A stretch of DNA of 58,182 nucleotides, filler included, from Dimargaris cristalligena (taxonomy: Eukaryota): assembly GCA_003614675.1 (NCBI GenBank). It is 4 parts of 4 records of this genome, joined end to end, with 100 filler letters (N's around TTAATTAATTAA, not from the genome) between each part and the next. Parts side by side here need not be neighbours in the genome. Positions count along the whole stretch, not along the records: positions 29,183 to 43,638 come from ML002950.1; 3 more parts are not named here. The stretch is one strand, 5' to 3'. Below, in pieces: positions 20,501 to 50,200 of this stretch (position 1 is its first letter; each line of letters starts with the position of its first letter). Below the pieces are notes generated by a model. The model was not told the DNA's origin, made no database searches, and saw only the letters and a list, made by a program, of their open reading frames with translations. The position numbers and the translations under genes are program-made.

Positions 20501-23500
20501 CAGTGCTAACCCCAATACCGCCGATACAGAGTTCTCCAGGGACACCGACGGGAACTGGTTGGAGATGGTCATCGAGCACGTAGCCCTGGGTATTAGATAG
20601 AGGGCGGCCGATAGAAATGGGCTCATCCTCTTTAATTTGATCAGCGTGGGACGCAATGGTTATTTCAACAGGCCCATAAAAGTTGAATAGGCGGACATAT
20701 TTACACCACTGGTGAGCCACATTACCTGAAACGGCCTCTCCTCCTACGAGAACAGTTTTCAAGTTGGGGTAGTCCCCTGGGTCAATGTTCGCCAGCATGG
20801 AAGAAACAAATGTGCAAGTATTAACGCGGACCAACGTATCGGTAATATTACCATCCTGGAGGACCAGGGTGCCACCTGAGTGGAAGGCACCGAATATTCC
20901 GATTAGGCACCCATCAAAGGAAATATTCACGGTCTGTAATATGCGGCTATCCGAATCGAATTTACCTGCTTCGCAGCTACTTATAATGAAGTTAACTAAT
21001 GACTTATGTTGTACGGGCACCCCCTTCGGTCGACCAGTGGTACCCGAGGTGAATACGATGTAGACCAAGTCCGAAGGTATGCGTGTGGTGTCGGGATGAA
21101 ATGTATCAGTGGCAATTATATGGTGATTAATCGTATCGACAAGGCAGCACCGACTTTCTGGATCGTTTATACGTTCCTTAAATAGTTCAAAATACTCAGT
21201 AGTAGTTAGCAACCACGGTTCGTCTAACACACCAAAAGTGTATAGGAGGCGGTCAATAGCGTTGGACACGTCCATTGGAATGCATACACCACCAGCCAAT
21301 AAAGTGGCCAAATAACTGAAAATAAACTCGGCCGAAGTGGAGAAGAGTAGAGCGACATGGGAACCAGGTTTGAATCCGCGTTGCTGAAGGGTCAGGGCGA
21401 TACAGCATGCTCGATGGTACACCTCGGCATAGGTGAATTGTTGATTCGAGGTCTCAAGGGCAATGGCCTCAGGCCTGGAGGGAACGTGCTGGCTGAACAG
21501 CTGATAAGCCAGCCAATGCTGCTGAGGAGACTTGCGGATGGGCCCCTGTGTCCAGTCGTGTATGAGCCGGGCCTCGTCGGTGGGCAAAACCATAAGCTCA
21601 CGTAGGACAGACGTCGGGCGAGTGACCATCCTTGACAGGCAGTGGTCCATGAATTGAACCAAGTAGTGGGCATACGTAGCGTCACAATGGGCTGTTTTAA
21701 AGAGGAGACTACAATCCAGTGCTCCTCCATTATCAGTACAACTAACAGTGTAGGCATACTCGGTAAAATTCTGGCTATGGTGAAGCTTGAGGGCAATTTC
21801 TGGGTTAGTAGTGTTAATCATGGATGGTGGGATGTTGTCGTATACAATAAGGGAATCAAAGAGCTTGTCGTCTGGGTTAACTCGGCCCCATTTGCAGATA
21901 TCTAGGAGGTTGCATTGTTCAACCCCCGTTAGATCCCCGGACTGACGATGCAGATGTTGGACGAAATCCGCGACTGACGTATCAAACTCAAGAGACGCCC
22001 GGAACGGCAAGGTATTGATGCACATTCCTACCATACCATCAATACCAGCCACGGGGACATTGCGACCGGAAGTCAAGACCCCGAAAGTAACTTCGTCGGC
22101 CTCGTTGAGGTATCGCGCTAGGGTGAGGGCCCAGACACCACGCAGCAGGGAATTGAGAGTAATCTGCTGTTCTCGACAAAACGTGCTTAGGGTCGGGAGG
22201 GAAGTTGAAAAGGTGAATTCATGCGTATCATATTCGCATAAAGAATTCCCTTTTTTATGTGTGGCGAACTGGACAACGGGAGTAGGTTTGACCCCATCGA
22301 GATTACACTCCCAGAACTTCTGCAACTGAGGCTGACCAAGCGACTTCAGATGTTGTATGTACCCTGTAAATTGTGTTGCCAGAACGGGGAGAGCATCGTG
22401 ATACAAATCAACCAATTCGGTCAGGATGATATTCTGAGACCAAGCATCAAGTAAGGCGTGGTGAAAGGTAAGGAACCCCAGTGTTTGTTTAGAATCGGAG
22501 GCTGACGAGGTATAGAGGCTGATCCGCAATAGTGGTCCATTAAAGGCAAATCCGCGCTGGCGATCCGCAGAAAAATATTCCTTCTCGATTTGTGGCCAAT
22601 TATTGTGAGATGTCTCTGTATGGACCGACCATTCGATATCACAGCTATCAGTAACAACCTGAAGGAAGGTATGCTCGGGTATAGTGCGAGGTTGGATAAA
22701 TTTGGTTCGCAGAATGTCGTGCTGTTGGGCCATCTGATACCACGCCCGCTGGAGACGGTTAACGTCGAGTGGTCCCGAGATAACGAATGATTCCTGAACC
22801 ATGTACGCACTCGGATCCTTAATAGTACTGACCAGGAATCCTTGCTGTAAGCTGGAAACAGGCAGGATGTCGGTGATGTTTGTAGGGCCAATACTCAGCT
22901 GCGAGACGGCTTCTTGAAGCAATGTTTCCACAATCGTGGACGCTAAGTCACCATCGCCCACGAGAGAGAAGGGTTGGTAGCCAAGGAGTGAATAGGAGTC
23001 CTGTGACTGATTAACCGAACCTTGCTCGGCAACACAGTTAGCCAACTCGGCGAGATTAGAACACTTGAATATTTGGGTGATGGACACACGGACGCCGTAA
23101 TCTCGACATAGTGAAGAAAAGCGAATAGCTGAAATGGAGTCACCGCCCAATTGAAAAAACGAGTCGTACATATCAATGTCCTTAGTAGGAATTTCAAGGG
23201 TTTGGCTTAGGGCCTCCACAATGCGGGCTTCAGTCGTATTGCGGGGACTAGTGATCGAGCGGTCACTGGATATAGCGGTTTTTTGGGTAAGAAGGCTAAT
23301 CAAGGCACGCTTATCGGTCTTGCCGTTGGTGGTGGTGGGTAAATTTTTGAGGGCAAAAAGGGCATGGGGTATCATGTATGGAGGCAGATGGCTAGTCGAG
23401 TGGGACTTGAGGGGACCAACTGGTACTGATTCTGGACTAACGAAGCCGTAGAGTTTACCAGAATCAATGACTACCGCAGCGTTCTGGACTTCGGGGAAGC

Positions 23501-26500
23501 CAAGTAGTACTGTCTCAATTTCCTGGGGCTCAACCCGATGACCACGGATTTTGACCTGGTCGTCCCGACGGGCAAAGTATTCAACGGTACCATTAGGGAG
23601 CCAGCGCCCAGTGTCACCCGTGCGGTAAAGATAACCTTGGCCAGTAAAAGAATTGGGCAACAGACGCTCACGGGTAAGTTCGGGTAGATCGACATAGCCT
23701 CGGGTAACACAGATGCCACCCACATAAATTTCGCCGGGGACCCCAAGGGGCACAGGCCGCAAGTGGCGATCCAGAATGTAGCACTCGGTGTTTGGAACGG
23801 GGTGGCCGATTGTAACAGGTTCACCTGGCCGAATTTCTACAGCGTGGCAAACAAAACACTCCGTGGGGCCATACATATTAAACACGCGGCAGTAATAGGC
23901 CCAGCGTTCAGCCACTTGGCGGGGCAAGGCCTCTCCCGCGGCAATAATCATCTTAAGGCCAGGGTACTTGCTAGGATCCAAGGAAGCCAGTACAGTCGGA
24001 GTAGCCACCAAGGCATCCACCCGGGGCAGGGTATCTAGGATGTCGGTACGCAGGACAAGCGTAGCCCCTTTGCACAAACTAGTGAAGATCTCCAAAAAAG
24101 CGCAATCAAATGTCAGAGCCATATTTTGCATCAGGCGCAATCCAGCAGTAATACCAATGGTTGATTCATCTTGCTGGACAAAGTTGGCCATGACCCGGTG
24201 CTCCAACTGAACACCCTTGGGCTGACCCGTAGTCCCTGACGTATACAGGATGTGGGACAGGTCGGTGGGGCGAACATTGGGAAGAGTGGGCAATTCGGCA
24301 CAGGGAATGTTGGAGGGTAAGAGCCATGGGTCAATGGTCCGGAATTCCACATGAGGGAGGGCCTGCCGAATATCATCAAGTCGGACCTGGTCAGCCGTAT
24401 TAGTTAAAATTAACCGAATACCACAGTCATCCACCATATAACGTATACGGTCGCTGGGGAAAGCGGGGTCAATCGGTACAATAGAAGCGCCGGCCAAACC
24501 GACGCCCATGTAGGCTGCGATAGTGCTGGGAACCCGGTCGATAATGAGGCCAATGGGGGTTTCCCGTTTAATCCCTTGTAGCAGTAAGCGGTGGGCCAGG
24601 TTCGCAGACCGGGTATGTAGGTTTTCATAGGTCCATAGCAAGTCGCCAAACTCAACCGCGGTGGTATCTGGAACCGCCTGGGCCGTCCGAGTGAATAGTT
24701 CAGGTACACAGACCTCAAAACCAATGGCTAGGTGGGGGCTGGTAAACTGCTTGGTAACTAGAGCAGTTTCACTCGTGGAGAGCATTATAAGGTCTTCGGT
24801 GAATACATGCCCATCTGGATTAGTCAAGGCGGAGACCAGGCCAGAAAAGAGTGTGGTGAGGTGGCGCGACAAGGCCTCCATAGAGCACCGATCAAACACA
24901 GACGCACTCCAGTTCAAATTCGCCGTGAGTTGCCCGCCTTCCACTTGGACAATGACGGCCAGGGGGTAGTCAGTTGATTCCAAAAAGTTCGTGTCCGTAA
25001 ATGTAACTGAGTGTACCAGACTATCCAAGCCAGTGTCGGGGTAGTTTTCGTACACTAGCAATGTGTTGAACATATCACTTGGGCGAACCTCGGCATTAAC
25101 CCATTCATTGATCTTGGATAAATGCAAGTGCTCAAAGGGTACCATTTTATGGGAGCTTTGGTGTATCATCGTGACAAGTTCGATGACTGACATTTCTGGT
25201 TTTAACGGGACTCGGAAAGGCACAGTGTTGATGAAGCAGCCCAGATGAGACTCGATATCAGGAAGGGGTAGGGCACGCCCGGAAACGGTGTTACCAAATA
25301 CTACTTCGGTATGGTCAGTGTATCGACTTAGTAGGAGGGACCAGGCAGCCTTGATGAGAGTGTACGGCGTAATTCCTGTTTGGCGAGCCACTTTACTTAT
25401 GTGCCCGGCATCGGGGAACAACGTAAACAGAAAATCGGCTTTGCGAGAGTCAGGAGTGCTAGGTGGCTTTGGTAAGTACAACTCAGTGGGGTGTTCTACA
25501 CCTCGCAGATACTCTTGCCAGAACGACTCGGCCCCTGTGTTGTCTGAATTATGAATAAAGGACACGTAGTCATGGAACGAAGTGGTCGGGCTGGTTATTT
25601 GTTCAGGATTCCTTTGGAGATGGGCGCGAAGCTGGTCTAATAGAATTCCGAAGGACCAGCCATCAACGAGCGTATGATGGATGGTTAAGAGGTAGCGGAA
25701 CGAGTTGGGGGCCAGTTGCTTAACGTATATCCGCAGGAGCGGCTCATTCGGTTTGAACCCCTGGGCCAGGTTTACCTGTAGGAAGTCATTTTCACAAACA
25801 GCACCTAGATCCACCCACTCGTTAATCGAATGCCAACCTAACCGCGGCTCTCGGGAAACTACCTGAACACCCTGGCAGTGGGGATTACTCCAAGACGTTA
25901 AAAACACAGTACGCAGAATGGCATGTCGGCTGATTACGGCCCGAGTGGCCGTCTCAAGCTGGTCGACGGTTGATACTCCGGTAACGGTAAAAGCCAGCTG
26001 AACCAGGTATTCGGAGGGATCCTTGGCCGTGGCCGTCCACATGCCCTGTTGCATGGGCAACATGGGGTAGAGGTCTTCAACGTCGTATGGAGTAAGGCCA
26101 ATGGTGCCGAGCTCAGATTCAAGTTTGGCTAGATCCGGTAGAGTGGCCTGTAGGTCAGGGAAATCCGACGGGGTCCATAATGAGATTCTAGAGGACTGCT
26201 TGGTATCCTGCACCATACCGATAAGGGAGTCACGGAAGAAACCCAAGAGTGATTCAACTATGCCTGTTGCTATGACCTGGGGACAAAAGTGGACCATGAA
26301 CCTTATACCCTCGGGAGTTGGATAACCAATGATTTCCACTAATTGTGTACGGAGCTCGTCAGCATCACAAACCACCACATCAGAAGTTAGTTCAGGACGA
26401 GGGGACCATGGGGCACGGCCATGTTGGGTCAGTGTACTGTGGTCCACTGTGTGCCCTAGATAATTGAATACGACCTCCATCGGCAAGTAGGGCCGGTTTT

Positions 26501-29082
26501 TGGAGGCTACGGCCTCAGAGTGGTTTACTATTCTCTGGAGACCATACTGCAGCCCATTGGTGCCATTCGACGAACGGAGGGCCTGTTTGGCCAGTTTAAG
26601 GAAATCCGTGCTCGATGTGCTAGCGTCAGCCTGAACCTGGCAGGGTACTAGAGCGGTAAACCAGCCCACGGTTTGGCTGGGGTCAAGGCTGGTGTCCCAC
26701 GAATGACGACCATGGGATTCATTGAAAATCGTGATAGTTGACGCTTGGGTCAGAGAGTACAGGGCCCGGAATAGACCAGCAAACATCAGTTCGAGAGGCT
26801 GGATAAGTCGAGCATCAACCCCCAGAATGATATCTGAGTGGATTTTATCCAAGGTGATCGACAAACTCTCCGAATTACCTTGGGTATTATATGCCCAGGT
26901 ATCGGAACCAGTGAGGAGTAAAAACGATGGTATAGGAGCCGATGATTGTTTAGCCACAGTTGAGGATTCTTTAGCCCAATCAACCAATTCGGTCGCCCAA
27001 GTTGCAAAAGAGGTATGCTGTTCTATTGGCTGCTGGCCGTCTATAATACGGGCCAAGTCTTCCAATAAAATTGACCAGGACACTAGATCCACTGCTAGGT
27101 GATGGATTGTCAAGAATAGCAGCTGCCGGGGGGATGACTGGGATGGAACCATGGGGTAAGAGCCTGAATCATTTGGGATGTTGGCATTGCAATCTATGAC
27201 GGTAACGAGACCCGCAGCCAAGTGGTGGCCCTGGGAGATATCCATCGAAGACTGGATCGATATGAACTGACTGGGGCAGTCAGACAGAGGGACGATTGCT
27301 TCTACCAGGGGAATGGGTAGACTGGTAAATGGAGGTAGTATAGATTGGGTCCACTGGCTGGGGGAATTAGACTCGTTCTTGGTGAACTGACAGCGCAATA
27401 TGTCGTGGTGGTTGACTAAACGAAGAAGAGCGCTTTCAATCTGAAGAGCAGATAATGGTCGGGTCAATTCAAGGGCAAACGACTGGTTGAAGTGATTGGG
27501 GTTGCGCCAGGGATGGTCAAAGAACCATAGCTGAACTGGGGTGAGCGGGAAGGGGGTCTGGTATTGAATCGGCTGATGTAAACTATTATGACCTATGGTA
27601 GGGCTGATGGCTTTCATATTGCCAACCACATCGTACAATGTTTTTGACCCCAGTATCTTGGAGGTAGGTAGAGTAAACCCAAGTTGGCGACACTTCGACG
27701 AAACTTGAATAGCCAATATTGAGTCACCACCGAGTTTAACGAACGACAACTGCAAATTTATCTGATCGAGGGCTAGGCCAAGTACGCCAGTCAGTGCTTG
27801 GGTTAGGACTTCCGCTGCCTGGCTTGACGAGACTGGCGCCGAGTCGGATAATGGTACCTGCCTCCGCTGGGTAGCTAAATACTGGGTGAAATGTCCTAAA
27901 ATAAATTTGGAATCACACTTCCCGTTGGCGGTGAGGGGCACTGTGGGTAGACCCACAAAATAACTGGGTACCATATATGATGGCAAACTATCGGCTACGG
28001 CAATATGCAGTGCATCATAATTGGCGGCGGATTCAGGAAATACATAGCCGACCAAGAACTGGTCATGGATAAAGACGACGCAGTTCTGGACTCCGGGTTG
28101 ACGTATCAAGACGCTACGGATCTCATCTAATTCTATACGGAAGCCCCGGAGTTTAATCTGACTATCCATGCGCCCCAGGCATTCAACTTGACCGTTGATT
28201 AACCAGCGACCCAAATCACCGGTGCGGTAGAGTTTACCCCGGCCAGTGAAGGGGTTGTCAATAAACGTGGTGAGATTTAGATCGGGCCGGTTAATGTACC
28301 CGCAGCTGACCCCGACACCACCAATAAAGATTTCGCCAATGGCCCCGGTGGGTACCAGCTGCAGCTGATTATCCAGAATATAGCACTCGTAATTGGGAAT
28401 CGGAGGGCCAATGGGGATTGTACCAGTGGGTGGGACGCGGGTAAAATGGCTGATAATAGTAGTCTCGGTTGGCCCATAGCCATTGTAGATATCAGGAATG
28501 ATCGACCATTTGTCAACCAACTCGCGGCTGAGTGGCTCGCCCGCTAGGCATAGTTTTTTGAGATTGGGGTAGTCAGAGGGGTTCAGCCGGTTGATGACCG
28601 ACGGTACTAACCAGGTTTGATCTACGTGACGCAGAGTTTCAGGTAGGTTGTCCCCGTAGAACACCAGCGTCGACCCATTGCACAAAGGAAGGAGGGAGTT
28701 AAGGATAAACACGTCGAACCCTGGTGCAGTTCCCGCCATGACACGCTGACCGGATACTTGGAGGTCTTGGAAGACAGGATTGCCAACCTGGTGATCGAGG
28801 TTATTATGGGTGACCATCACCCCCTTGGGCAAACCGGTTGAGCCTGAAGTGAAAATAATGTAAGCCAGGTCGCCAGGGCGACTATTGTAAATGTCGGACC
28901 TGTTGCCAAAATCGCCATTACCCTCTAGAAAGTCAGACAGGACTAGGGTATTAGGCAACTGACTAGGCGAGCCAGTGGCGTTCAGTACAATCGTGCAACT
29001 AGCTGCCTCGATAATATACTTCTGGCGCTTCACCGGTAGCTTATAGTCTACGGGCACGTATACGGCCCCCACAACCCAAGCC
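14600..29082 (-). CDS. Multimodular nonribosomal peptide synthetase fragment, A1-T1-E1-C-A2-T2-C-A3-T3-E3-C-A4-T4-E4(partial), about 4,830 aa, no start or stop in the contig
   Basis: Four A domains ((Y/F)TSG(S/T)TGxPKG near 28850, 24240, 21045, 16480; YGP(T/V)E; YRTGD/YQSGD; G(F/H/Y)R(I/V)E). Four carrier motifs (GGDSI near 27725, 23140, 19950; GGNSL near 15385). Three C domains (HHxLxD(G/A)WS near 25670, 22450, 17890). E domains with HHLAVDLVSW/ESHGR/VGWFT (27100), HHFAVDFVSW/EGHGR/RTVGWFT (19385) and HHLVFDYLS (14815). The ORF-track stop at 14544 is the linker. Confidence 0.97.
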
Positions 29083-29182
29083 NNNNNNNNNNNNNNNNNN
29101 NNNNNNNNNNNNNNNNNNNNNNNNNNTTAATTAATTAANNNNNNNNNNNNNNNNNNNNNNNNNNNNNNNNNNNNNNNNNNNN
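29083..29182. other. Artificial contig spacer
   Basis: N run - TTAATTAATTAA - N run. Confidence 0.98.
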
Positions 29183-29546
29183 GCGAAGGGAAAGGACAAG
29201 CAGGCAGGCAAGCAAGCGAGTAAGTGAAGGTGCAAGTGAGAGTGAGAACGTCGGTTGTATGCACGATTAGTGTGTGTGTGTGCGCCATAGATCACCCACA
29301 CAAACAAGCACCACATCATCCTCATCCTCATCATCCTCATCCTCATGAACAAGCACAGATTATTAGCTAAGAATGCATCCAAACATACACTGCAAACACA
29401 TAGAACATCCCGCCTGCACTCGATCATATCCAAGTGTTTATTAGCAATGCAAGCATAGAATAGCAATCTAAATGGAACAGCAGCCGCCGTCGGATGCACA
29501 CACACACACACATACATGCACGATGTGGTGGTGATGGCGGTGGTGA

Positions 29547-30008
29547 TTAGCGCGCCCGGCAGAGCAGCTCGCCGCCCACATGACGTCGTACGGCCTCGTT
29601 GATCTCGAGCACGCCGTAGCAGGTGGCCACCATGACAATCTCGCCGGGCAGCACGGGCTTCACGAGGCCCTGTCGCTTGCCGGCAATCAGGTTCTTGAGC
29701 ACGCTAAGCGTGCCGGTGATGCGACGCGACGGCTTGCTGATCACCTGCATCGACGTGAGCACCGGCTCGTTCTGGCGATACTTGAGCTCGAGCCAGTAGC
29801 GCCGCGACGCGATATTGAGGTTCGTCGTGGGCACGTACGCCTCGTCGGGTCCCTTGCGGTTACCGCGCGCCACCGACGCTATGAAGCCCTGCTCGTAGAG
29901 GACGCGCGCGAGGGCGAGGTTCATACGCGTGGCCGGCACCGAGATCCGCGGCAAACGCGACCTGAAGCTATTCTGGATATGCGAGCAGATATTGTGAATT
30001 TGCGGCAT
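29547..30008 (-). CDS. MRPS8: Nuclear-encoded mitochondrial ribosomal protein uS8m, 153 aa
   Basis: MPQIHNICSHIQN start, LYEQGFI, LELKY, ISKPSRR and GGELLCR are uS8 family motifs, with the fungal mitochondrial insertion (GPD...PTTNLNIASRR). The true start is probably the ATG at 30008. Confidence 0.92.
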   Translation of the reverse strand: MPQIHNICSHIQNSFRSRLPRISVPATRMNLALARVLYEQGFIASVARGNRKGPDEAYVPTTNLNIASRRYWLELKYRQNEPVLTSMQVISKPSRRITGTLSVLKNLIAGKRQGLVKPVLPGEIVMVATCYGVLEINEAVRRHVGGELLCRAR

Positions 30009-30276
30009 GTTGAGATTCCTCGCGTGCAATCACGACGCGCAACCCTTCTCTTGACCAACGCGGTGCTATATGCAGAGATAGATCGTGGCGGCGTATGTGC
30101 GTGAACGGGCGGGAGAGAAAAGACGACGCGGGAAGTAGAAAAGAAGAGAAACGATCGCGGGGTGGCGCGAACCAGCCAACTGATAACCAACCAGCCAAGC
30201 GTGTTCCTTCATCGCAACTGTTGCTGCGCTTGCTGCTGCTGTTGCTGCTGTTGCTCCCTTCTACTATTGCCACACG

Positions 30277-33092
<2,816 letters not shown>

Positions 33093-34541
33093 CGGGCCGC
33101 TACTGCTGCGCACAACTGCTACTAGAATCGATTAAAGCATTAATAACACATAGCTTTATTGTCAAATAATGTACATTGTCATCAAGCAGAGATGTCACCA
33201 TTGTCAATGCCGATAGAAGAGAACAAACAGACCGCCCGCCCTTGGAGCGATGCGCCAGTCCAGTGGCACGAGCGATCCCGTCTCCAAGCGCATGTGGCAG
33301 ATGAGGCGGAGCAATGCCGCGTGGCCATGCGCACAGTGAGGCATCCTCCTCGCGACGACGACACTGGCATGGCCATGATGCGCGGAGAACGGGCTCCTAA
33401 TACCTGCTAGTAAGTGCAGATATTCATCATGGCCACTGGTCGCGTCTCTGCAGACATGGCCAGCACGAGCAGAGCACCTGCTAAGCCCATTCTCGCCACT
33501 CATAGCCGCCACCCGATGCGCCCATCATCGGCGAGAATCGCCACACGGCCACCAGACGAGCAACATCCCATTTGCGTTGCCTTCCCCCCTCACACACAAC
33601 AGCATGCCCCCCACGCAGCACATCCGCCCATGTAGGGCGACGCGCACACCAAGCAGTCCTGCACAGCGCCCATGTCGTCGAGGTGTCTTTGAGTGTGGTA
33701 TGCAGTTTAGCGACCGGTCAAAGACTCTGCACGCTATTACAGAGCCTAATACCGCTGGCGGGCCACACACTCATCGGTATGCGGCGCCACCATCGGCCAG
33801 CTATAGGCACCGTAGAAACACCGGTCATGCCATGCACCGCACGACGGGCACGACGAAATAGCCGCGCAAGCATCGCAGTGGACAGGCCGCCAGCATGTCG
33901 CCAGTCCATCGGCACCATCTGCCACCACGGATGTTGGCACGCCATGCCACTTGAACGCCTGCCACGCAGACAGCCATCCCAAAGCACGCAATTTCCCCTA
34001 TGCGGCCGGTAGACAGCTGCCGCCAACAGCCGTCCAAGGGGGGCAGTAGCGCACCAGCATCCATGGACGCGACCGGCACGACAGCAGCAGCGCTATCCAC
34101 GCTTTGTTTGCGCGGTTGGATTAGGGTTAAGTTGAAGACGTGCGTCTTCAAAGACAGACATGGACTAGCGTGCAGGACGCTCAAGGTCAACAGGAGCGGA
34201 CGCACCGCGCAGGAAGCCGCAAATGCCAAAGACGAGCGGGTTTGCTTCTAAGAGCACACGCGTGCCATACAATACGCAGATGGTATGGCACCGACCGTAA
34301 TGGTGGTTGATTTACCCAGCCAGCGCTGGCGAACGCGTCATTCGACAAACACGCACGCACATACACGAGTAACTGGGAGAGAAGAGGCATAGAGAGCAGA
34401 TGTGCGCGAACGCGCCAGGAAGAAAGCTCTATACGAATAGGGCGGAGGCAGTTTTTGTTTGCAAGTTTTGCGGCGAATAAACACATCGACAGGCAATGCA
34501 GCAGGTAGAGTATGGTCAACATCATCACACATGCATGCGTG

Positions 34542-34547
34542 TTTATT
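34542..34547 (-). terminator. AATAAA polyadenylation signal of the micro-exon gene
   Basis: Plus-strand TTTATT about 235 nt downstream of the TAA at 34781. Confidence 0.5.
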
Positions 34548-34609
34548 CATATGGTGTATATGGTCAAAGATGGACGGGGCACCACATACAGCATTGCATT
34601 CATGTAATG

Positions 34610-34633
34610 GATGATGATGATGATGATGATGAT
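34610..34633. repeat. (GAT)8 microsatellite
   Basis: Read directly. Confidence 0.85.
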
Positions 34634-34780
34634 GGAGAAGTAGATGGTAGACTTGCACCGAGTGATGATGGTGGTGGCAGCTTGAATGGCATGGACAGCA
34701 ACGAAGGGACTTGCTTGCTCCAATGGACCACGATATCATTGTCGTCTCGGATGTCTATCCTGTCTACTTGATGCCTTGGT

Positions 34781-36322
34781 TTAATCGAAAACTAATTGCA
34801 CATGGTTAGACTTGCTTACATCATCATTCTATGGTTACTTACGGCCTATCATTGCATCATCGACCGATAAATGGGTAGGTGATTGCATTGTTAGCTTGTT
34901 GGATAATCTGCGCATATTAGCAGGCTTACATTCTATCCACAGCATTATCATATAATGAGCAATATAGAATGGAATGGTATATGCTGGCTTACTGGCTATT
35001 CATACAATACGGCCACATATTGGCGAATGTCCCATCACGGTCAGTGCATCAAGTGGCACATGGCCAGCATAATGACTTACTGACTATTCACGGCAATGGC
35101 CGCATACAGATCGAATATTGCACTCCAGTCAGCATATCGGACAAGGCGCCCCATGTAGTAACTTACGGCCTGCTCGCATGATAATCGCGCATACAGCAGA
35201 TGGTCAGTCAGCTGCATTATTGCACTGAGCCATACTGCTAGTGCATCTGCTTACATTCTTTCCACGGCAATCAATGGTTACATAGTTCATCTCGATTAGT
35301 GCATCGCATGGAATGGTATGTGCCATTGCTTACGAGCTATTCGCAAAGCAATCGAATATAAAATGAGCATTACATGGCTATCAGCACGATGAACGAAATG
35401 GCGTGTGCAGCAACTTACAGTCTATTCGCATAGTAGTCATGCGTGGATTGGGCATCGTGCGCCAGTCAGTTCATGCATCGGATGCAATGATCTATTGTTG
35501 GCTTACCATTTTCTCCTACATCATCATATGCATGGCATCGCAGTCAGTACGCTGCACACGGCAATGTGTACATCGACTTACCGCCTATTTGCAATGTGGA
35601 TGCATGAAATGATATTCCAGCATGATTAGCACGCATCAAATGGGACTACTGAACGCTTGCTTACAGTCTATTACCACGTGTTCCCCTACAGTTAGTGTGC
35701 TGCACAGAGTAAACAAACGAAGTCTTACCATCTATTGCCAGGGATTGAGGATGGTCAGTACAATGAATAGAATGCTACATGGATAGTTACTTACTCACTG
35801 CATCCATAGGATAATCACACAGGATCAGTGGACTGTATGGAGTGATCTATGTGGCCACTTACTGCCTGCTCGTCAAGCACAATGTGATCAGTAGATTGAG
35901 TGGTATGGCATGTACAGCTACTTACAAACTGTTCATATAGAGTAGCCACACATGGAGTAATCGACTGTTATTGATGCATCCATTGTGCTTGCATGTGCAA
36001 TGGTTTACCATCTATTCACATGGATTGATTAGTATTGCATCATATAAACTTTATGCAGCTAGCCTACCAACTATTCGCAAACGATTACGTATGTATTGAA
36101 TATTCCATCATAGTCAGCACGCTGGTCAGCACGATGTTGTTGCGGGCTTACGATCTAGCACAATAAAAAAGCATATAATGATCAGGCATTCCATCATCGC
36201 TGCTCCTATTATGTTGACATACCAACACGGCGGACCAAGGCAGGCTTCGCTTCGACGGTGGCCAGGCTAGCAACGGCGACAACGACGACGGCGACAATGG
36301 CAATGGCAGTGGAGACCTTCAT
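34781..36322 (-). CDS. Micro-exon gene for a 56-aa secreted Cys-hairpin prepropeptide; 20 exons in transcript order: 36322-36223, 36154-36152, 36070-36068, 36011-36009, 35928-35926, 35865-35863, 35797-35795, 35731-35729, 35667-35665, 35584-35582, 35515-35507, 35421-35419, 35336-35334, 35257-35255, 35169-35167, 35083-35081, 34995-34993, 34932-34930, 34845-34843, 34791-34781
   Basis: Nineteen consecutive 51-85 nt GT-AG introns (16 with GTAAG donors, most with a CTRAY branch site). Joining the exons gives a stop-free frame: MKVSTAIAIVAVVVVAVASLATVEAKPALVRRVDLDVCMNDCGENDSQCLTKCLFD*. Confidence 0.92.
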
Positions 36323-36489
36323 GGTGACAGTAGGATGGCAGACTAGTGGACTGGACAAGCAGGCAGGATATAGAGTATCAACAATAGTGGTACTAGCAGT
36401 AGACAGCAGACAGTAGACAGTAGACAGTAGTGAGCAGAGAGGGCGAGTGAGTATGAGGATGGCTGGTTGCCGTGACAAATGGTGGTTTA

Positions 36490-36495
36490 TTTATA
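36490..36495 (-). promoter_or_regulatory. TATA box of the micro-exon gene
   Basis: Minus-strand GATATAAATAAA about 170 nt upstream of the ATG at 36322. Confidence 0.55.
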
Positions 36496-38350
36496 TCTGG
36501 AAGCGAGACAGTAGAATAATTTGCGCAACATGTCTGAGGAGGAGAGGACATGGATGACGAATGCGAGTCAGACAGGTGTTCGGCATGAATGAAGTGGGCG
36601 GACTGGTCTTGCATGAAGAAGCAAGTCCCATCTGCTTGCGGGCAAGACATCCATCATGCAGCGATGGACCAGTCAGCATACTTGCACATGGCAGTATCGT
36701 CCATTGTACGCGTCAGCATCATTCTGGTGAGTGGGCACCAATCAGGCTGCATCTATTACCCAATGTGTCTGCTGTGTCGCCCATATGACCTAACACCATG
36801 CCAACTGCTGTGCGAGCGCAGTCTAGCTTGCCTCCGACTGAATACTTGCTGGCGAGCACAGCAATGGGCATGAAGCTGGCGGATCAGTCAAGCTGCCCTT
36901 GTATGGCATTGCCGCATAGGAACACATCATCATCACCATCATGCTGCCCAGCATCCATTCGACTGCACGTATACGCACATTCCATGATGATGATGATCCA
37001 GCACATTCTGGCTGACTGGTGCATGCATAGAGCATTGTCCAGCAATGGATGGTGACAAGCACAGGCAAGAAGCAGAAGCAGAAGCAGCGGCCAATGGAAT
37101 ACTAATCCATGCCTGTGTATGTGCATTCAAGCTGAGGCAGCGTCGGCACGAATGGCCATAGAAGAAAGAGACAGCAAGCGTGGAGCGAGAGTATGGAAAA
37201 CAAGGTCACCGCGGCAGCTGACGAGGAAGGATGCCGATGGCGGACGACGTTTGCACCAATGGCGCGCCGTGACCGTTAGAGTGCCCGAGTAGCAATGACG
37301 ACATGTACCAATCATTGCATAGCCGCCAACTAGCTTGTCCCACCGCCATTTGAGATGCATGACAGGCCAAGCCCGTTCGGCATTCGATGGTAGGCAATCC
37401 GATGTAAAAGGGGAAGAGGAAAGGAGGCATTGCCACAGCAGACGGCCTTCCTGCGGCCTTCCGGCAACGACAACAACAGCGAGCATGCATTGCACTGTAA
37501 TCCACCATCGATGGTAGCACTAGTGGCAGCAGTAGCTCCGCCATTGAAAACCTGTTCGAACGGCGTGCCATGTCGTCCATGACATACGTCGCTGGCTGCC
37601 ATGACGCCACCATGCCATAGAGCCGGCCGTCAATCCGTGTTCGTCGCCGAGAAGGCCGCTCGCCCGTCTGCACTGCTGCCAATCACCCATGCCATGCCAT
37701 GCCATGCAGCGACCGTCATCGACGAGGCGTTGGCTGCATCAGGCAGTGCCAAACAGATGTTGGTGCATCCGCTGCTGTCCTCGCTCTCTGCGTGGCATAT
37801 GACCACCCTCCATCGAGCATCATGTAAGCGTGATTCGTCAAACTTGAAACGCGTCTTCCGCACACCCGCACATCCACATCCACATCCACACACACACGCC
37901 CTTCGCGGAGGGAGGCTGCATCTCCGTTGCTTGGGCGCCCGAATTCACATGGACACGACGGCCTTATGGCCGGTTCCGCCCAAGCTTCCAGGAGAAGCGC
38001 CTGTTCTGTTCGCCTAATTTGGAACCATTTGAAGAATGGTGCTGCTGCTGCTGCTGCTGCCGTTGCTGCTCTGGCATGACTTGTGACCGCTTTTAACGCC
38101 ACGCACCGCTCGTCGTTATTTAACGGCCACCACACGCACGCTATCCGTTTCCGTAGCATTGCCATCGCGTTTCGTATCACATTTGCCGCTGCTGTTGCCG
38201 TTTTGTTTTATTGTTATTGTTATCCTCCTTCTTGCTAGCCGTGCCATTGACGACAACAACAGTCTTGTTCCATAGTTTTGTCTGGTCCCGACATTCATCG
38301 CGCCTACATCCTAGCTGGCACATTTGCAGCATTAGTCATTGCCTACTAGC

Positions 38351-39417
38351 ATGAATTATTTTCTTCAGGACGTTGCCCAGCTGGTGGCGCCTTCAGCGGG
38401 CGCCTATGCTCTTCTGCACGTCTTCGCCAAGGCCTGCCTCATACCACTGCTGGGGAAGCAGCGCCGCATCAAGCAGCTCTCTCTTTCGGATCGTATTAAT
38501 CTCGATGGATTGTAAGTACATACATGCAAGTATACTGGCGTAGACATGTCTAGCCATTCTTCCTCCCTGCCATGGCTGCTAACACGCGTGTCTGTCTATT
38601 TTCCCTTCTTCCCTGCAGGACATCGTCAACGGTGCACGCCATACGCACCGGCATCGGCGCTATCCGCCTCATCATGGTGTTGCAAGCATGGTCGCATGAC
38701 ACCCTCCATCCTTATCCCGACGAGGCACGCAATCTGCTCGCCGAGCATGCTGGCTACACACTCTACGACCTGGCGGCCATGAGCATGCAGTCGTACCAGC
38801 AGAACGCCATGTGGACACACCACGGCCTGGGCATCGCGGGATCGCTCGCGATGCTTTATTTCCGACGCGCCTCCTTCTACCCCATCGCCTTCCTTGCCAC
38901 CGAGATGACCGTGCCCATCGTCAACGGCCTCTGGCTGCTCGACAACGTGCTCGTCGGCAAGAAGGCCCGCTACCAGGGCCGCGCCGGCCAGATCCGCATG
39001 GTGCTGCTTTGGCTGCGCGCCATCGCCTTCGTCGTGTTCCGCCTGGCGATCGGCCCGCTCGCGCTATGGTACGGCATGACCCGGTCGAGCGTGGCGCACA
39101 CATCGACGCCCGCCGATATCGCCGGCGCCCTCGAGGCCAGTTCGTCGATGCTTGCCTCGGGATCGGTCGGTTCGCTCGGCGCGCCTTCCCTCGGCAAGGG
39201 CCACGCGCTCGAGCTTGTCGGCCTGCCGGTGTCGGCATCGCCGTCGTGGAAGACGTTCTGGCAGCGGATGTTCCAGCTTCCCGTGCCCGTCTGGTCCGGC
39301 ACCATGGTCAATCTGCTTGTGTTCTCGGTGCTGAACGTCCTCTGGACCCGTGGCGCTGTCCGGGCGCTGCAGCGTGAATGGCTCCGCTACCGGATGGCGT
39401 CGTCGATGTCTTGCTAG
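38351..39417 (+). CDS. TLC (TRAM/LAG1/CLN8)-domain membrane protein, TMEM56/TLCD-like, 319 aa; exons 38351-38511 and 38619-39417
   Basis: SSTVHA, GYTLYDL, THHGLG, TEMTVPIVN, FVVFRL and LNVLW match the TLC pattern. A phase-2 intron at 38512-38618 (GTAAGT..GCTAAC..CAG) supplies an N-terminal TM exon. Confidence 0.85.
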
Positions 39418-42400
39418 CTCGCGCGGCGGAATGGACGGGCACATTGCCCACATCCGCGCGCATCGTATCAGCTGCTCGTGATCTTTGCACACGACATCCA
39501 CTGCTGCTCCTTTCCTTCCTTTCCTTTTGCCCTGTTCATAATAATAGTGTGCTTATTCGGCCTACTGACACGGATATGGCTAGTACCATGCGCACACACT
39601 TTCACAAAGGCCGTCCACACTAGCCCTCTAAGCCTGTCTCTGCCGCGCACACATCTGCTTCTATGTGGAAGCTGCGCTCTCTCTCTCTCTTTCTCCATCT
39701 CCCATCTCCCATTTCCCGCTTTGCACATTCAATAGCACCAATGCTTCTTTTTATTTTCCTTGTTTCTCCTTTCTTGGCAGCGCTCACTCCTCACAAGGTA
39801 TGCCCGCACACACGCCACAGCCATGGATCCCATTGACCGTGTATGAATCCGTTTATTGTGCCAACCAGCAGACCATTAAAATAGCTCGCTTGCCACCATG
39901 TCTTCGGAGTTGTTGCCATTACTGCCAGTGCCAGTTCGGGCAATGATCGCGCTTCAAACATATTGTCGGACATTGCAGCGGTGCTTGTCCCGCCGCCATG
40001 AAGTATACGGCTGCCCGTGACATTGTGTCTTCACGGCGAGCAGCTATAATTAACCCGCTCGCTTACCATTTCCAGCCATGTCGCATTGTCTCCACTCGTC
40101 GCCGCCCGACGAGTGTGTGTGTGGCTGTGTCTGCGCATGCCGTGCTATTTGTAACATGTGCCTTCCATGCCCACCTTCTCCGTATTCGCCTCCTCCTCCT
40201 CCTCCTCCTCACACATCGCCCTCTCCTTCCCCCTTCCATCTACCTCATTCGATGCACAGGTGGCACCGCTCCTTCTTCTTTCGTTTTCCTCGCTTTGGCT
40301 GTTCGTCCTCGCCCTCGCCCTCGCCCTCGTTCTATTCGGTTGGACCTGTCATTTGCGTTACCATACACACACACACACGCACCTCCTCCTCCTCGCATCA
40401 CATCGCAGTGGCTGTCATTGATATTATCATTGCCCAAGCATTCCACGCATTCATTCTCTCTTCTTCTCTTCATCACCATCCGTCTACTAGAATCCATTCT
40501 GGTAAGTGTTGCGCCTTGTCCATCCTCAGGAAGAATCCGCCGCCACACCCACATCCACACATACACATGCCCAGCGCGAGCATCATCGACAAGCGAGTGG
40601 GGAGAGCGTGGCTTGTCTGTCCGCCCCTTCTTGCTCGCCCGCTCGCCCATCCTCCTGCTTATTGTTCTCCTCGTTTCATGGCACGCGCGCACATCTGTAC
40701 TATGGGTGATGCTGATGCGCCCGTACAGCGTCTTTGTTGGCGGTCGCACCCTGCGTACTTTTCGCCTCGCATATGCTGGCGATAAGCAGTGGCGTGCTTT
40801 TGGCTTTCGTACTGCTGCTGCTGCCCATCGGTGGCGGAGCTGTTTATGCGCATGCGCCAATAAGCTCTGTTGCTGCTCGATTCTTGGTCGATGCGGACGA
40901 GGATGGCCGGCTACGGCTTTTGAGGATGCTGTTGTTCTATACGCATACAGGTATTATATGTCATAGGTGATACTGCTGGTGGCACAGCAGCGCCATCGAC
41001 ATTGTCCTCTCTCTCTTTCTCTCTCTTTCTCTCTTCTTGTCTGGACATGCTTTAAACAATTCTATTAGGCTTTTTCGTCTTCTTCGCCTCCCCTTTTTCT
41101 TTCCACTGCCTTGCTTGCTGGCTTGCTTGCCCTCGGTCGTTCCTTCTATCGCTCACTCGCTCGCTCGTCGTCTCCCTAATAGCACCTTCTTTCCTCCTCC
41201 TCCTCCTCCTCTTCCTCCTCCTCCTTGTTGTTGTCGTCGTTAGTCTCCCTTTATCCTCTATGCTTCGTCGTCCGCTACACACACTCGCACTACGATAGCA
41301 CTCATCCGCTGATTCACCTACACTCCATAGTGCCCGTGATTCAGTCGTTCCGTGCTAGTCTTTTATTACTACTATTATTACATTCACGCAGTGCCCTCTC
41401 TCTCTCTCCCTCTCCCTCTCCCTCTAAGCGAGTGGGCCGTCGCTCCGTGGTGGTCGTGCATCCAGCTATACTCGTTCCATGTAAGCCACAGGGAGGAATC
41501 CCACAACAGCGACCGCTGCTGTCGTGTCGCGAATGGATGCGGATGTGGATTCAATCCTTGTTTGCTCGGGGTGCACGCGTACATGGGCTGGCCATGGCTG
41601 TCTAGCGCGACAATCATCGCCATGGTCAACAATAGAAATGGCGCGGGCCAAGGAGCGCGATGTACACATGTGTATGTGTGCACGTGTGCATAGGAGGAAG
41701 GGGAACAAGCACGTCGCGCCATCTCCTCTCTCCAATCTCGTGGTCCCTTGATGATGATGATGATGATGATATCGGTTTCCTTGTGGTTGTCACACCGTGG
41801 CGGGCCTATTCTTTCCTTTCAGCGAATGGGCGGCAGTCTGCTGTCCTACATGCGCATGCCTCCGCCTCTTTCTAATGGCCATTCGTGCTGCGCCCTCGTC
41901 CGTCTGTATTGAATCGCCGGATGGCTGAGCATGCTCACTCCATGGTCGGACTTGCCCTTCCTGGACGATGTTTACCTTTCTTTGCTCCTTTTGTGCGCAT
42001 TGCGAATAGCCTGCTCGTATGACACAGCGATGTGGAATGATCATGGTGCATGTGCATATGATGTTCATTAACGCAGCAATCCTTCCTGTCTGTTTCTAGC
42101 AGCTTGACGATTACGGCCTTCCCATCCACCAACTAGCGTGGCAATACAAACAAACAGCAAGCTGCTTTGTGTAGGACGTTCTCGCTACCTACAGGCGTCC
42201 CTACTACAATATCGCTACCGCTGCTGCTGCTGCTGCTCCCTTATTCACTCCCGCCTATTTCCCATTGGTATCATTATCCTCGCTATATCCTTCTTAGTTA
42301 GCGAGCAGCACTACTCGACCATTGCTGCTTGCCTTAGTAGCTCGAATTAGACGTAGTAATCCAGTATGTATGTACACGCGCGCATCCATCGCCCCTACCA

Positions 42401-42614
42401 CTCCCTCTCTGTAGTAGTGGCAATCACTCGGTCGCCAGCATGCGAGAAGGAGGACAATACTAACCGATATGACCACTTGCATTTGTTGTGCACACTCTAG
42501 TCTAAACCATCCGTTGGCATAGCATTTGCTACTACTCCCACCACTGCAACTATTGCTGCTGCTGCTGCTGCTACGCTTTAATTCAGTAAAATTGAGTTGT
42601 CGTCCAGCCGTGGC

Positions 42615-43638
42615 ATGGCGTTGGAGTGCCGGCAGCCTGCCTCGAGGCGGGCAACCGGCCGTGCTAGACCACTGTTCATCCGGCGACATACGGGCATCCC
42701 CCTTCTCCTTCTCCTCCTTGCGTGCCTATGGACCATGGCCGCCGCCCTCTCGCCAGCGGTTTCGGCCAGCACACTAAGCCTGCAGTATGGTCTCCTACAG
42801 CGCCGGCAAAGCTGCCCGGCCGGACAGACCTTTTGCGGCAAGTTTGGCTGCATCGCCGGAATCCAATGCCCACATGGTAAGCCCGCGCCAGATGCGGCCA
42901 TGCACACGCCATCCACTACTAACCTATGACGATATGCGTGTGCGTGCGTATGGGGAACACGTCCACAGCGTGCGCATACAACGATGACATGCAGGCATGT
43001 GATCGTGTCAACGTCAATGGCCGACCATGTGTCTGGTGGGGCAGTCAATGCATCATCAGTAAGTGTGCGCGCGATTCACAACTCCATGTCGACTCATCAC
43101 AACCATGCTCGCTCCAGGCGCGCAATGCACAATGAAGGAGGGCAAATGCCAGGGTGACTGCATGTCGTGCGGCGCCTATGGCTGTGTACCGCGAGGCCGC
43201 CAATGTCCAACAGGTACGTGCGCGCATGTGCACACACACACACATGTCATCGGCGAGCCCTTCCTCCACTAACGCGCATCATCATTGCCATGACATAGGA
43301 TGCGAGCAGTTCAACGAGAAAGGCCGCTGCAATCAGTATATGGCCAGCAACGGCATCAATTGCCACTGGGACACGGGCCGAGGCATATGCACTTATGGTA
43401 GGTGCTCTCCCGACCACAGCGGGATATCCATGTGCGAACGCGCATCGCTAACCCACGCATGTTGCTGTGCAGCCGTGGGCGAGACGCCTCTCGGCCAGCT
43501 GCGCACTGAGCCAAGCGCCATTGGCGGATCCGCGTCACCAGCACCAAGCCCGCTCGATCTGCTGACGATGATGCGTAAGAACATCCTCGCCAACAGGCCC
43601 AGCCGACTGCCCGACGGCACGTCCATCTCGAGCGAGAA
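42615..43638 (+). CDS. Cys-rich secreted or cell-surface protein, 3'-truncated; exons 42615-42876, 42969-43058, 43118-43213, 43299-43397, 43473->43638
   Basis: Hydrophobic signal (IPLLLLLLACLWTMAAA), an RR site, then Cys modules joined by four phase-1 GT-AG introns with TACTAAC/ACTCAT/ACTAAC/GCTAAC branch sites. A Pro/Ser-rich stalk follows. Confidence 0.8.
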
Positions 43639-47267: not shown

Positions 47268-50200
47268 TCAGTCATCATTTTTCCTCTGGGTCAATTCTCG
47301 TACGGCCTCCTCTAATTTCCGGTACAGCCAACGGCGACTCGACGCTTCGGGAATTGGGATAAACGGCCCCGGCTCATTACCACGCAAGGTCAGCGAAATG
47401 CCCGTGGCTTCGAGATTAATACTCTGTAAAGCGGACAGGGAAATCACCCACTCCACACTTAAACTGCGGCTCTTGATGAGCATGAGTTTAGAGTAGGTGA
47501 CCAAAGCTACCATTTCGGATCCCCGGAGTTCCAAATGGGCCAGGTACGTCTCGTAGAAGTAGTCGCCGTTATCGATTTGCTTGAGCCAGAATTGGCCGAG
47601 GGCGTCGCGTTGGTTGTACGGGTGGAGGATGCCATCGCGGGCTACGAACCGGGGGAGGCGGACGCGGTCCAAATCGACGGCATTGAATACTGTCGTGGTA
47701 TTCTTGATGCCTTCCGTAACGTGACTGGCCAGGTCAAACACCCCCACCATGGGTTTGGTGACCACTCCCACCAAACCCTTACCCACGCCCTTGAAGAAGC
47801 CGCCCAAGCCTTCCTTTTCGGCGCCTTGGATGGGCTGCATAACGACACCCGTGATGCCGCTGGCTACACTCGATGCAAAGGACGTGGCCCCCTGACTGAC
47901 CCCGTAGAGGGCGTGTCGGGGTCGGTTCCGGGTCCGTGAGATACGTCGCCGGTCTTGGTAACTCTTGTCCAAAGTCGCAACGGACAGTCCCTTACTCACG
48001 CTCTCCGCAAATTTGGAGAAGCTGTCCGAAAAGCCGTACACGGTCTTACTAAACAGTGAGTACGTACCACGGGCCAGACCGATACCGAAATCCTGCGGCC
48101 GGTCACTCATGACGAAGCCGTGGTAAGGTTCGTAGAAGAAATCAGCCACACCGGAACTGATGTTGTTGAAGAGACCGACGGGGTTACCAATCACGTCCGC
48201 CGAACCCAGTACCTTATGGATTTGGTAGAGGGCCTCCTGGCCGTAGTGCTTGGTAAACCGGTCCAATAAAATCGTCATACTGGCGCGCACGTTTTCAATG
48301 ACCAGGGCATTCAGTTTCACGGGGGCGTCGTTCACGTTACCAATAGCCATGGTAATTGCATTACCAATGACCATCAACGGGTTCTGCGAGTTGGTGGGGT
48401 CCATTTCCTGGTTGATCCGTTGGGTTCGCACAAACGACAGGTTGAATTTGAGGGGCTGAATATGCAATACTTCGAAGTACAATTGCATTTCATCCTGCGG
48501 GACCGGTGGTTCGGGCAGTCGGTGGACCGTTTCACAGTAGAGTCGGTCCTCCTCGGTTTTCAGCTGTTCGTCACTCTTTTCCGCGCCGAATTTAGCAAAC
48601 TCGAGGAGGGCGAACAGGAAGTCTTCGTCCATTTCGAGTGACATTTCCTGTAGCAGAATGGAAAAGTACCGGATATAGTTCACACCGTACGACTCATCCT
48701 TGGCCCGCACCAGGGCGACGTGTAAAGTTGGCCGAATTTCCGTGTCCTGGCCCGTCTTGGGGATAATGGTGGGGTAGAGCAAAATCTCATTAAGCCCGCC
48801 GTAGAGTTGGTTATCGATTTGGACCCACTCGATCATCCAGTTAAGCGACTGGTTACAGGTGGAGTCGGTATATTTGAATTCAATCCCCCGGAACGTAGTG
48901 TACATGAGCTCCTGCAGTTTGGCGTTGATGAGGGAGAGGCCAATTCCCTCCAGCCGCAGCCGGAAAGTCATGGTCGTGACATTGCTCACGTCTACGATTT
49001 CGAAGGCCTCCCGCAACGTGTCCTTTCGTTGCAATTTGGGTTTGAAAATACTCTTGTTCTGGTTGTACGAGGTCAGACGCAGGACCTGGGTGGCGTGGTC
49101 GGCGATGACGTCCACGGACATGGTGTTGGGGTAGGCGGCCGAAGAGGCAAACTTAAAGGGAATTAGGGTACCAATCTGCTGGATATCCACGTGTCGCTCG
49201 TGACCCTTGACGTTCAAGACCAGTTGCTTATCTCGCATACTGGGGTAATCCCAGGAATACGACATGGTTTTACCAGCCGGCAGGCGGTACTTCTTAACCA
49301 AGGTACCTGAAAGATCTGCGCCGGCACCGGCGGCCTCCCGGAGACTGGGGTCGTACTGGTACAGCGTCACATCCACCCCCGAGGCATTCTCGATACGGTA
49401 GGGCCACTCCCCCTCGACTTGGGAGAAGAGGATGAAGATACAGGCGCCCTCCAGCACGACATCCACCCGCACCAGAATCCGTTCCAGGCGGGTGGTGTTT
49501 AGCTTCACGAACAATTTGCCCACCTCGTCAATGAGGAACGGGGCCGACCAGTAGTTATTGAGGCCAGGGAAATTGATGGTGAGTTGCTTCTCCCGGATCT
49601 GATGGATGAAATGCAGGGGGGCCCGCTGGCCAGCGGCCAGGCGGGTACTGCGGGGAGTGCCCACTTCCCGGAAGTTGAGGTCCTGCTTGAGGTTGTTTTT
49701 CAGCAAGTACCGTGGGGTGAATGAAACCACCTTGGTACGACTGAACTTACCCGGACCCGGTTCAACGCTAATACCGACGTGAATCGTACTGGCGGTGGTG
49801 CTGCCGAGGGAGGGGATCACCACTTCGGTTAGACTACCCACGGCATCGAAACTCAGGGGTTTACTCCAGTCTCCTCCGGAGAATTTGATGAGACAGCGGT
49901 TACGGGGTTCGTAGGAATCGTAGGAGAACATAAAGGGTTTGGGGTTGTCGCCCCCTGGGATACCCTCCCCGCTCTGGCCGGCTACTACCGACGCGCTTTT
50001 AATCAATGACTTAGATTTAAGCAGCATCGCCAACCCGGTCTGGTTAATCATCACGTAGGGGGCGTAGATGGATACAATATGAGCACCACCCGTGTCGGGG
50101 ATCGGTCGTCGGTCCAGCCGTAGGGGCAATTCGCGCCGTTGGTTGTCAATGAGAGAGATTTGGTCATCCACGTCCATGTCCTGGTCCGAACTAGCGTCGA

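Follow-up and report, generated by a model that had tools for sequence, protein, structure and literature searches.

How a coding sequence might come to be divided into a long run of exons of one codon each is the question raised by a locus on the minus strand of DNA from the mycoparasitic fungus Dimargaris cristalligena (assembly GCA_003614675.1). The locus lies at positions 34781-36322 of the stretch analysed in the present study, which is 58,182 nucleotides (nt) long, consists of four joined parts of the genome, and is called the window hereafter; positions 29,183 to 43,638 come from record ML002950.1. As modelled, the gene has a signal-peptide exon, 17 exons of 3 nt, one exon of 9 nt, and 19 introns of phase 1. 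We hold with about even confidence that this is a real but mis-annotated gene for a secreted peptide with four cysteines (Cys), in which the array of micro-exons most likely arose by repeated copying of a unit composed of an intron and 3 nt of coding sequence. The parts of the modelled gene are as follows.

36223..36322, minus strand: exon 1, with the ATG at 36322-36320, a hydrophobic, signal-peptide-like N-terminus, a short pro-region with two arginines at its end, phase 1, and the donor GTATGT.
34843..36154, minus strand: the micro-exon array, in which 17 exons measure 3 nt and one measures 9 nt, with introns 2-18 (56-85 nt) between them.
The 3-nt exons, minus strand, by their high coordinates: 36154, 36070, 36011, 35928, 35865, 35797, 35731, 35667, 35584, 35421, 35336, 35257, 35169, 35083, 34995, 34932, and 34845.
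35507-35515, minus strand: the 9-nt exon.
34933..35581, minus strand: introns 10-17, adjacent introns that resemble one another and are mostly of the 76-85 nt class.
35258..35333, minus strand: intron 13, 76 nt, partner of intron 17 and followed by the exon AAT.
34933..34992, minus strand: intron 17, 60 nt, resembling intron 13 with internal deletions and also followed by an AAT exon.
34792..34842, minus strand: intron 19 in the favoured model, 51 nt, with CTAAC at position 34 and the acceptor AG at 34793-34792.
34781..34791, minus strand: where the last exon begins in the favoured model, with three codons and then the stop TAA at 34783-34781.

The signal peptide was called by eye from the hydrophobic N-terminus, and the 51-nt model of intron 19 was favoured because its CTAAC lies 34 nt from the donor, as in the other introns. 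The predicted product is 56 residues long, with four Cys arranged as C-x3-C-x6-C-x3-C, and would probably be secreted, as judged from the sequence.

First, several features indicate that the 3-nt exons are probably spliced as modelled. The phase set by the donor of exon 1 is the only one that stays open through the micro-exons, the other two reaching TGA within 6 codons, and the longest frame across the array on either strand has at most 96 codons. The pattern AG-NNN-GTAAG, expected 4.93 times in the window, occurs there 18 times, a count reached in none of 100 shuffles, and 15 of the 18 occurrences fall in the array on one strand. Acceptors are AG in all 19 introns and donors are GTAAG in 16, while 16 of the 19, whatever their length, carry the branch-point motif CTRAY at a distance of 34-38 nt from the donor; the distance from branch point to acceptor is bimodal, at 13-27 or 37-44 nt. 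High information content is confined to the first 6 and the last 8 or so positions of the introns. This restriction of conservation to the splice signals is the pattern to be expected from purifying selection on splicing.

Second, duplication is the likely origin of the array, as far as its sequence allows us to judge. Exon length and phase are uniform (3 nt in 17 exons and 9 nt in one; phase 1 in 19 of 19 introns), and such uniformity is an automatic product of unit duplication. By simple arithmetic, independent insertion would place 19 introns in one phase with a probability of about (1/3)^18. To compare the introns, 6 nt at the 5' end and 5 nt at the 3' end were masked, and local score, global identity, z against shuffles, and windows anchored at the 5' or 3' end were used as measures, on either 18 introns (153 pairs) or, with intron 19, 19 introns (171 pairs). 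With donor, branch point, and acceptor all masked, the mean z of segments compared in register was 1.23 between donor and branch point and 1.16 between branch point and acceptor. Reversed partners gave 0.03 and -0.23, and non-corresponding, out-of-register segments gave 0.70; the Mann-Whitney P for in-register against control comparisons ranged from 2e-4 to 2e-26, although the pairs are not independent. Ten intron pairs had a local score of at least 14, against 1.9 expected from dinucleotide shuffles. The likeness was concentrated in one run, since the mean pairwise z was 2.96 for introns 10-17 and 3.09 for introns 11-17, compared with 1.86 overall (permutation P 0.0002 and 0.0014, respectively); within introns 11-17 it was equal at lags of 1 to 6 introns (2.99-3.37).

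Third, the introns appear to belong to this array alone within the window. A profile built from them gave 17 matches at an expectation value (E) of 0.012 or less, all inside the array, and no copy elsewhere in the window (best E 0.42), so that there is no sign of a dispersed introner. No intronless paralogue was found in the window, where a tblastn search with the predicted product matched exon 1 only. Thus, the original prediction that the array grew by duplication of intron plus 3-nt units, and not by insertion of introns into an existing coding sequence, fits the uniform 3-nt exons, the single phase, and the in-register likeness of the introns.

Several observations weigh against this reading, some of them concerning the origin of the array and others the gene model. 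Intron interiors are close to random, and Tandem Repeats Finder, applied to 34500-36400, detected no repeat in the array, only a run of (GAT)8 and, in exon 1, a repeat of 9 nt. Over the whole array, average intron likeness shows no clear fall with distance, and likeness was measured among the introns of the array only. In addition, the interiors share short words: ATGC occurs 29 times against 5.2 expected and is present in 14 of the 19 introns, and GATGCA occurs 7 times against 0.42 expected, often just 5' of the branch point. GATGCA may act in splicing or may be left over from a common ancestor, and the positive mean z could derive in part from this shared word bias. Likewise, the fixed spacing between donor and branch point could reflect a splicing constraint instead of common descent.

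Taken to its end, this line of thought would leave the array with no recoverable duplication history: the introns would be alike through the shared demands of splicing, and their most similar pair, 13 and 17, would be the chance maximum of 171 comparisons. The enrichment of ATGC and GATGCA and the out-of-register z of 0.70 are consistent with such a shared vocabulary, and about one pair with a local score of at least 15 is expected among 153 (0.94 from dinucleotide shuffles, with three seen). Matches between exon-intron junctions also occur at many lags (2, 3, 4, 7, 9, 10, and 13), with no single period. However, in-register likeness, at about 1.2, exceeds the out-of-register value, the similar introns are contiguous, and introns 13 and 17 match in two separate in-register stretches, at their 5' and 3' ends. 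Moreover, constraint alone leaves the origin of 17 exons of exactly 3 nt unexplained, and we therefore regard this explanation as very unlikely.

The remaining points against the preferred reading, a mis-annotated gene with an array built by unit copying, concern the gene model. The last exon is uncertain, as other acceptors for intron 19 are possible. The public model of this locus, RKP35139.1 (198 residues; 34603-36871, minus strand), reads intron 18 in full, and introns 5 and 6 in part, as coding sequence and has another last exon (34763-34603). In the main text of the genome paper (PMC6784888) the word "transcriptome" has 0 occurrences; RKP35139.1 is therefore probably an ab initio model, and it looks like a garbled one.

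The translation of exon 1 (query region 36224-36322) matched five proteins, all with fungal labels, at an E of 0.001 or less among 1.84 billion representatives, with 84-100% identity over exon 1, one of them being RKP35139.1; that five database proteins share exon 1 indicates a gene family. All 26 invariant columns in the alignment of these relatives lie inside exon 1, and identity drops sharply immediately past the two arginines, which coincides with the modelled end of the exon. No Pfam family was found above the cut-off in any of the five. A protein word-index search with exon 1, limited to 22-72 residues, gave no match; the relatives have 108-198 residues and lie outside that range. In one relative, residues 47-67 are 76% identical to an in-frame reading of intron 5 and the following Cys exon, indicating that a paralogue keeps that unit and that the unit predates the split of these copies.

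It could be argued from these data that the 3-nt exons are not used as modelled, and that the product resembles the public 198-residue model or that the locus is non-coding and its splice-like motifs are those of a decayed repeat. The public model does differ from ours, the genome paper is, as far as its main text goes, without RNA data, and queries with the downstream 138-codon frame described below and with exon 1 matched nothing of similar length. Nevertheless, we consider this highly improbable. Conservation falls exactly on donor, branch point, and acceptor and not across the unit, only the phase set by the donor of exon 1 is open, and the relatives are conserved only up to the end of that exon. 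The public model is itself no escape from micro-exons, as the GT-AG chain that gives RKP35139.1 exactly needs six 3-nt exons; in this model residues 45-77 form the signal-peptide-like stretch, and the best Pfam match (E 0.076) falls below the cut-off, leaving it without a Pfam family.

A Cys- and His-rich frame of 138 codons (34341-34754, minus strand) adjoins the array and holds the (GAT)8 microsatellite (34610-34634), which is read as a His run. As a candidate for the last exon it was rejected, since it needs a 125-nt intron with an unremarkable acceptor and has no relatives, none having been found in a protein word-index search of 75-242 residues. It is probably 3' untranslated region.

If the array was built by copying units, the size of the copying step can be considered. 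The original prediction went further than unit copying and proposed that a block of four exons was duplicated in tandem, adding one CXXX unit. The features on which that proposal depends are as follows.

35084..35421, minus strand: proposed block copy 1, exons 12-15 with introns 12-15, lying at offsets of 338, 341, 325, and 324 from copy 2 at the exons.
34792..35083, minus strand: proposed block copy 2, exons 16-19 with introns 16-19, in which only intron 17 is like its counterpart.

The short matches cited in favour of the block were all found on the plus strand, at 34924 and 35249, at 34969 and 35308, and at 34837 and 35161, as was the flank ctgctcg at 35863 and 35167. The exons AAT (35255-35257 and 34930-34932) and GCC (35167-35169 and 34843-34845) do recur, at offsets of 325 and 324. 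However, the quoted matches consist largely of splice signal and exon, and the third of them (34837 and 35161) is entirely acceptor AG, exon GCC, and donor GTAAGT.

Between the intron interiors, the block was visible in one pair only. Introns 13 and 17 rank first of 153 by global identity, at 0.80 of the shorter intron (mean 0.624, standard deviation 0.063), and have the top global z of 171 pairs, 5.6. Since the next values are 4.9, 4.6, 4.4, and 4.4, the pair is the top of a continuum and not an outlier. The two introns match in register in two stretches, one near the donor (35323-35308 against 34984-34969, 15 of 16 positions) and one before the acceptor; a repeat family in this pair (D2) has 86% identity over 21 nt at a spacing of 339. 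The other pairs were at background. By global identity, introns 11 and 15, 12 and 16, and 14 and 18 rank 94, 134, and 136 of 153, and z was 2.8 for 11 and 15, 1.0 for 12 and 16, 0.7 for 14 and 18, and 1.1 for 15 and 19, against an all-pair mean of 1.86. Thus, one of the five intron pairs that a four-unit block predicts to be alike lies above background, and the claim that introns four positions apart resemble each other at offsets of 324-341 nt holds for 13 and 17 and fails for the other four pairs. The local match between introns 14 and 18 (score 14) joins the 3' end of intron 14 (35176-35199) to the 5' end of intron 18 (34902-34925) at an offset of 273, out of register, and this match is the source of the earlier impression of likeness at lag 4.

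Lag 4 was not enriched as a class either. Its mean local score was 9.67 compared with 9.27 overall (permutation P 0.25), and lag 2 had a higher mean local score (P 0.037, uncorrected). Mean global z at lag 4 was 1.56 against 1.86 overall; with the branch point masked as well, the values were 0.90 and 0.86 against 1.23 and 1.16 overall, so that the z means at this lag were below those of all pairs. Therefore, in the all-against-all comparison of masked introns, pairs four apart were no more alike than other pairs, which largely contradicts the proposed block. A comparison of introns 11-14 with introns 15-18 as blocks tied for rank 1 of 105, with P 0.017 if the position is fixed beforehand and P 0.75 if any position or lag is allowed.

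The evidence from exons is similarly divided. Among the 3-nt exons there are four identical pairs, three of them at lag 4; between the proposed blocks, two of four exon pairs are identical (AAT and GCC), although the Cys codons account for part of this identity by necessity. Compared with itself at a shift of 12 nt, the exon sequence agrees at 20 of 48 positions (autocorrelation, permutation P 0.01), but six of the 20 matches are the Cys codons themselves, and without Cys-Cys positions the value is 14 of 42. A junction comprising the end of intron 3 and ATG is 88% identical over 24 nt to the end of intron 7 and ATG, also at lag 4 (repeat family D4), whereas the two GCC (Cys) exons have dissimilar flanks, their junction pair ranking 96 of 153. 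Of the six pairs of Cys exons, the closest is formed by the first Cys exons of the two C-x3-C motifs (junction rank 19 of 153), whose flanks agree at 83% of 24 nt (repeat family D3). The flank that the Cys exon at 35863 was said to share with that at 35167 is indeed present, but this relation is one of lag 9 and not of lag 4. Duplication of one half of the array, in which the second C-x3-C arm would be a copy of the first and intron k would correspond to intron k+9, was also considered and rejected as unsupported: z was 2.7, 2.4, 2.1, 2.6, 0.9, 2.9, 0.6, 0.7, and -0.3, not above the mean, and only the flanks of the first Cys exons were alike.

In light of these results, we consider it unlikely that one tandem copy of the four-unit block, exons 12-15 with their introns giving exons 16-19, produced the second C-x3-C and that the array grew in four-unit steps. 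The top rank of introns 13 and 17 in the array, the identical AAT exon after each with the GCC exon one unit later, the lag-4 exon pairs and junction, and the block test with its position fixed beforehand are consistent with such a copy. However, introns derived from one copying event should show equal divergence, and four of the five predicted pairs are at background, with the match between 14 and 18 out of register. Nor does the first C-x3-C bear the mark of such a step, with z of -0.4, 1.0, and 1.6 for introns 4 and 8, 5 and 9, and 6 and 10. A single four-unit copy predicts likeness at lag 4 only, whereas the equal z at lags 1 to 6 within introns 11-17 fits several small steps or exchange between neighbours. 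That a four-unit copy gives C-x3-C spacing is true as arithmetic, but the event itself is not demonstrated here.

The likeness of introns 13 and 17 might instead be a later patch, produced by conversion or unequal exchange of about one unit in an array that was already old. The extent of the similar tract is in keeping with this idea: beyond the intron it takes in just the AAT exon and the donor that follows, the upstream neighbouring exons differ, and introns 12 and 16 and introns 14 and 18 are unlike. The uneven likeness among pairs of supposedly the same age (z of 5.6 against 0.7-2.8) agrees with it as well. Nevertheless, a patch appears improbable to us, given that repeats which match poorly would need some homology at the outset to exchange about 80 nt and that 13 and 17 stand at the top of a continuum in which the next z values follow closely.

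Thus, we return to growth by unit copying and propose that the array could be regarded as a coding "minisatellite". A short intron with 3 nt of coding sequence would have been copied again and again, one or a few units per step, and each copy would have added one codon in frame. Under selection, only the donor, the acceptor, and a branch point at constant spacing from the donor would have persisted as the interiors of the introns decayed. The 3' half of the array (introns 10 or 11 to 17) would be its youngest or most homogenised part, and later exchange between units is possible. A four-unit step may have been one event among these, leaving its trace only in introns 13 and 17 and the AAT exon after each; such a trace would not be distinguishable from a smaller copy or a conversion patch, and any order of the duplications is to be read with the same reserve. 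Two observations on the 9-nt exon (35507-35515) may be added. Its last four bases recur at the junction of exons 7 and 8 (35795-35797 and 35729-35731), and the exon after it (35419-35421) has the same 3 nt as exon 9 (35665-35667); this pattern would fit the loss of two introns from a copied stretch, but introns 8 and 11 are not similar.

The distribution of the gene family deserves comment. The four relatives other than RKP35139.1, namely RKP23980.1, RKP22321.1, RKP22639.1, and RKP23822.1, are labelled Syncephalis pseudoplumigaleata, an organism of a different subphylum; they are hypothetical proteins, lie on contigs of 2.1-3.7 kilobases (kb), and are 84-94% identical over exon 1. A kinase encoded elsewhere in the window (6301-7491) is about 70% identical to a protein of Syncephalis (S. 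plumigaleata). For the copies with this label, sample carry-over within the project or horizontal transfer seems likelier than vertical descent.

We tentatively hypothesize that this locus represents a gene family of a mycoparasitic fungus encoding secreted Cys peptides on arrays of single-codon exons, a coding minisatellite capable of codon-by-codon growth and possibly of exon-skipping variants; this wider idea is conceivable but the less probable course. Since every exon is symmetric, exon skipping could give peptide variants. If the hypothesis is true, this would be the first micro-exon gene (MEG) system outside flatworms and the most extreme exon fragmentation described, and intron number would have risen by tandem copying of units and not by insertion, with one residue changed per step. 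If splicing is confirmed, the gene would be a test bed for the handling of long runs of 3-nt exons by the spliceosome and for intron multiplication. In addition, automated annotation misses or garbles such genes, as the public model with its mixture of 3-nt exons and read-through introns illustrates, and the secreted-peptide repertoires of early-diverging fungi may therefore be under-counted.

The window is intron-poor and contains no second micro-exon array. Rfam gave 0 matches in the whole window, and Pfam gave none above the cut-off for 16 frames flanking the array. The other features are as follows.

6301-7491: a 396-codon frame for glycogen synthase kinase 3, 100% identical to a D. cristalligena protein and 91% to one of Dispira simplex.
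14544-29126, minus strand: an intronless nonribosomal peptide synthetase (NRPS) frame of 4860 codons, with Condensation in 7 stretches, AMP-binding in 4, and PP-binding in 4.
47268-57476, minus strand: a VPS13 frame of 3402 codons.
Elsewhere in the window: a WD40 gene and a TLC-domain gene.

The NRPS frame is about 5.7 kb from the micro-exon gene in window coordinates, and 21 NRPS genes have been reported for D. cristalligena (PMC7466969). The region from 30000 to 34000 is GC-rich (0.59) and has many overlapping open frames on both strands, with no Pfam match.

Three known systems share some of the features described herein. Copying of a unit composed of a symmetric exon and an intron lengthens a protein in frame and gives uniform intron phase. 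Tandem duplication of exon and intron thus has the uniform phase in common with the present array, but here each unit holds only one codon of exon sequence and the copies are too decayed for Tandem Repeats Finder or for the size of the steps to be read. Introner-like elements, known from Micromonas and Dothideomycetes, are near-identical introns that multiply in a genome and are dispersed at unrelated sites and in unrelated phases. The array resembles them in having many introns of one family and of similar length; unlike introners, however, its copies lie in one gene, at a spacing of 3 nt and in one phase, with none elsewhere in the window. Alpha-hairpinin-like peptides have two C-x3-C motifs with a short loop and a helix-loop-helix fold. 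The Cys pattern is present in the predicted product, the loop here having only 6 residues.

Isolated 3-nt exons have been documented in human genes (PMC12207440, PMC8632122), and in a search of the full-text literature no description was found of runs of 3-nt exons or of this gene. The closest comparison is that with the MEGs of schistosomes, in which a signal peptide is encoded on a longer first exon, the other exons are very small and symmetrical so that skipping keeps the frame, and the products are secreted by the parasite; exon duplication has been described in one MEG family (PMC4350168). The gene as predicted has this type of architecture: its longer first exon is signal-peptide-like, and tiny symmetrical exons carry the greater part of the coding sequence. 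The exons of MEGs range from 3 to 81 bp (PMC10526429) and are mostly larger than those described here, and their introns reach 5 kb, whereas in the present gene nearly all exons are of 3 nt and the introns are of 51-85 nt. According to PMC4350168, MEGs "appear to be restricted to platyhelminths", whereas the gene described in the present study belongs to a fungus.

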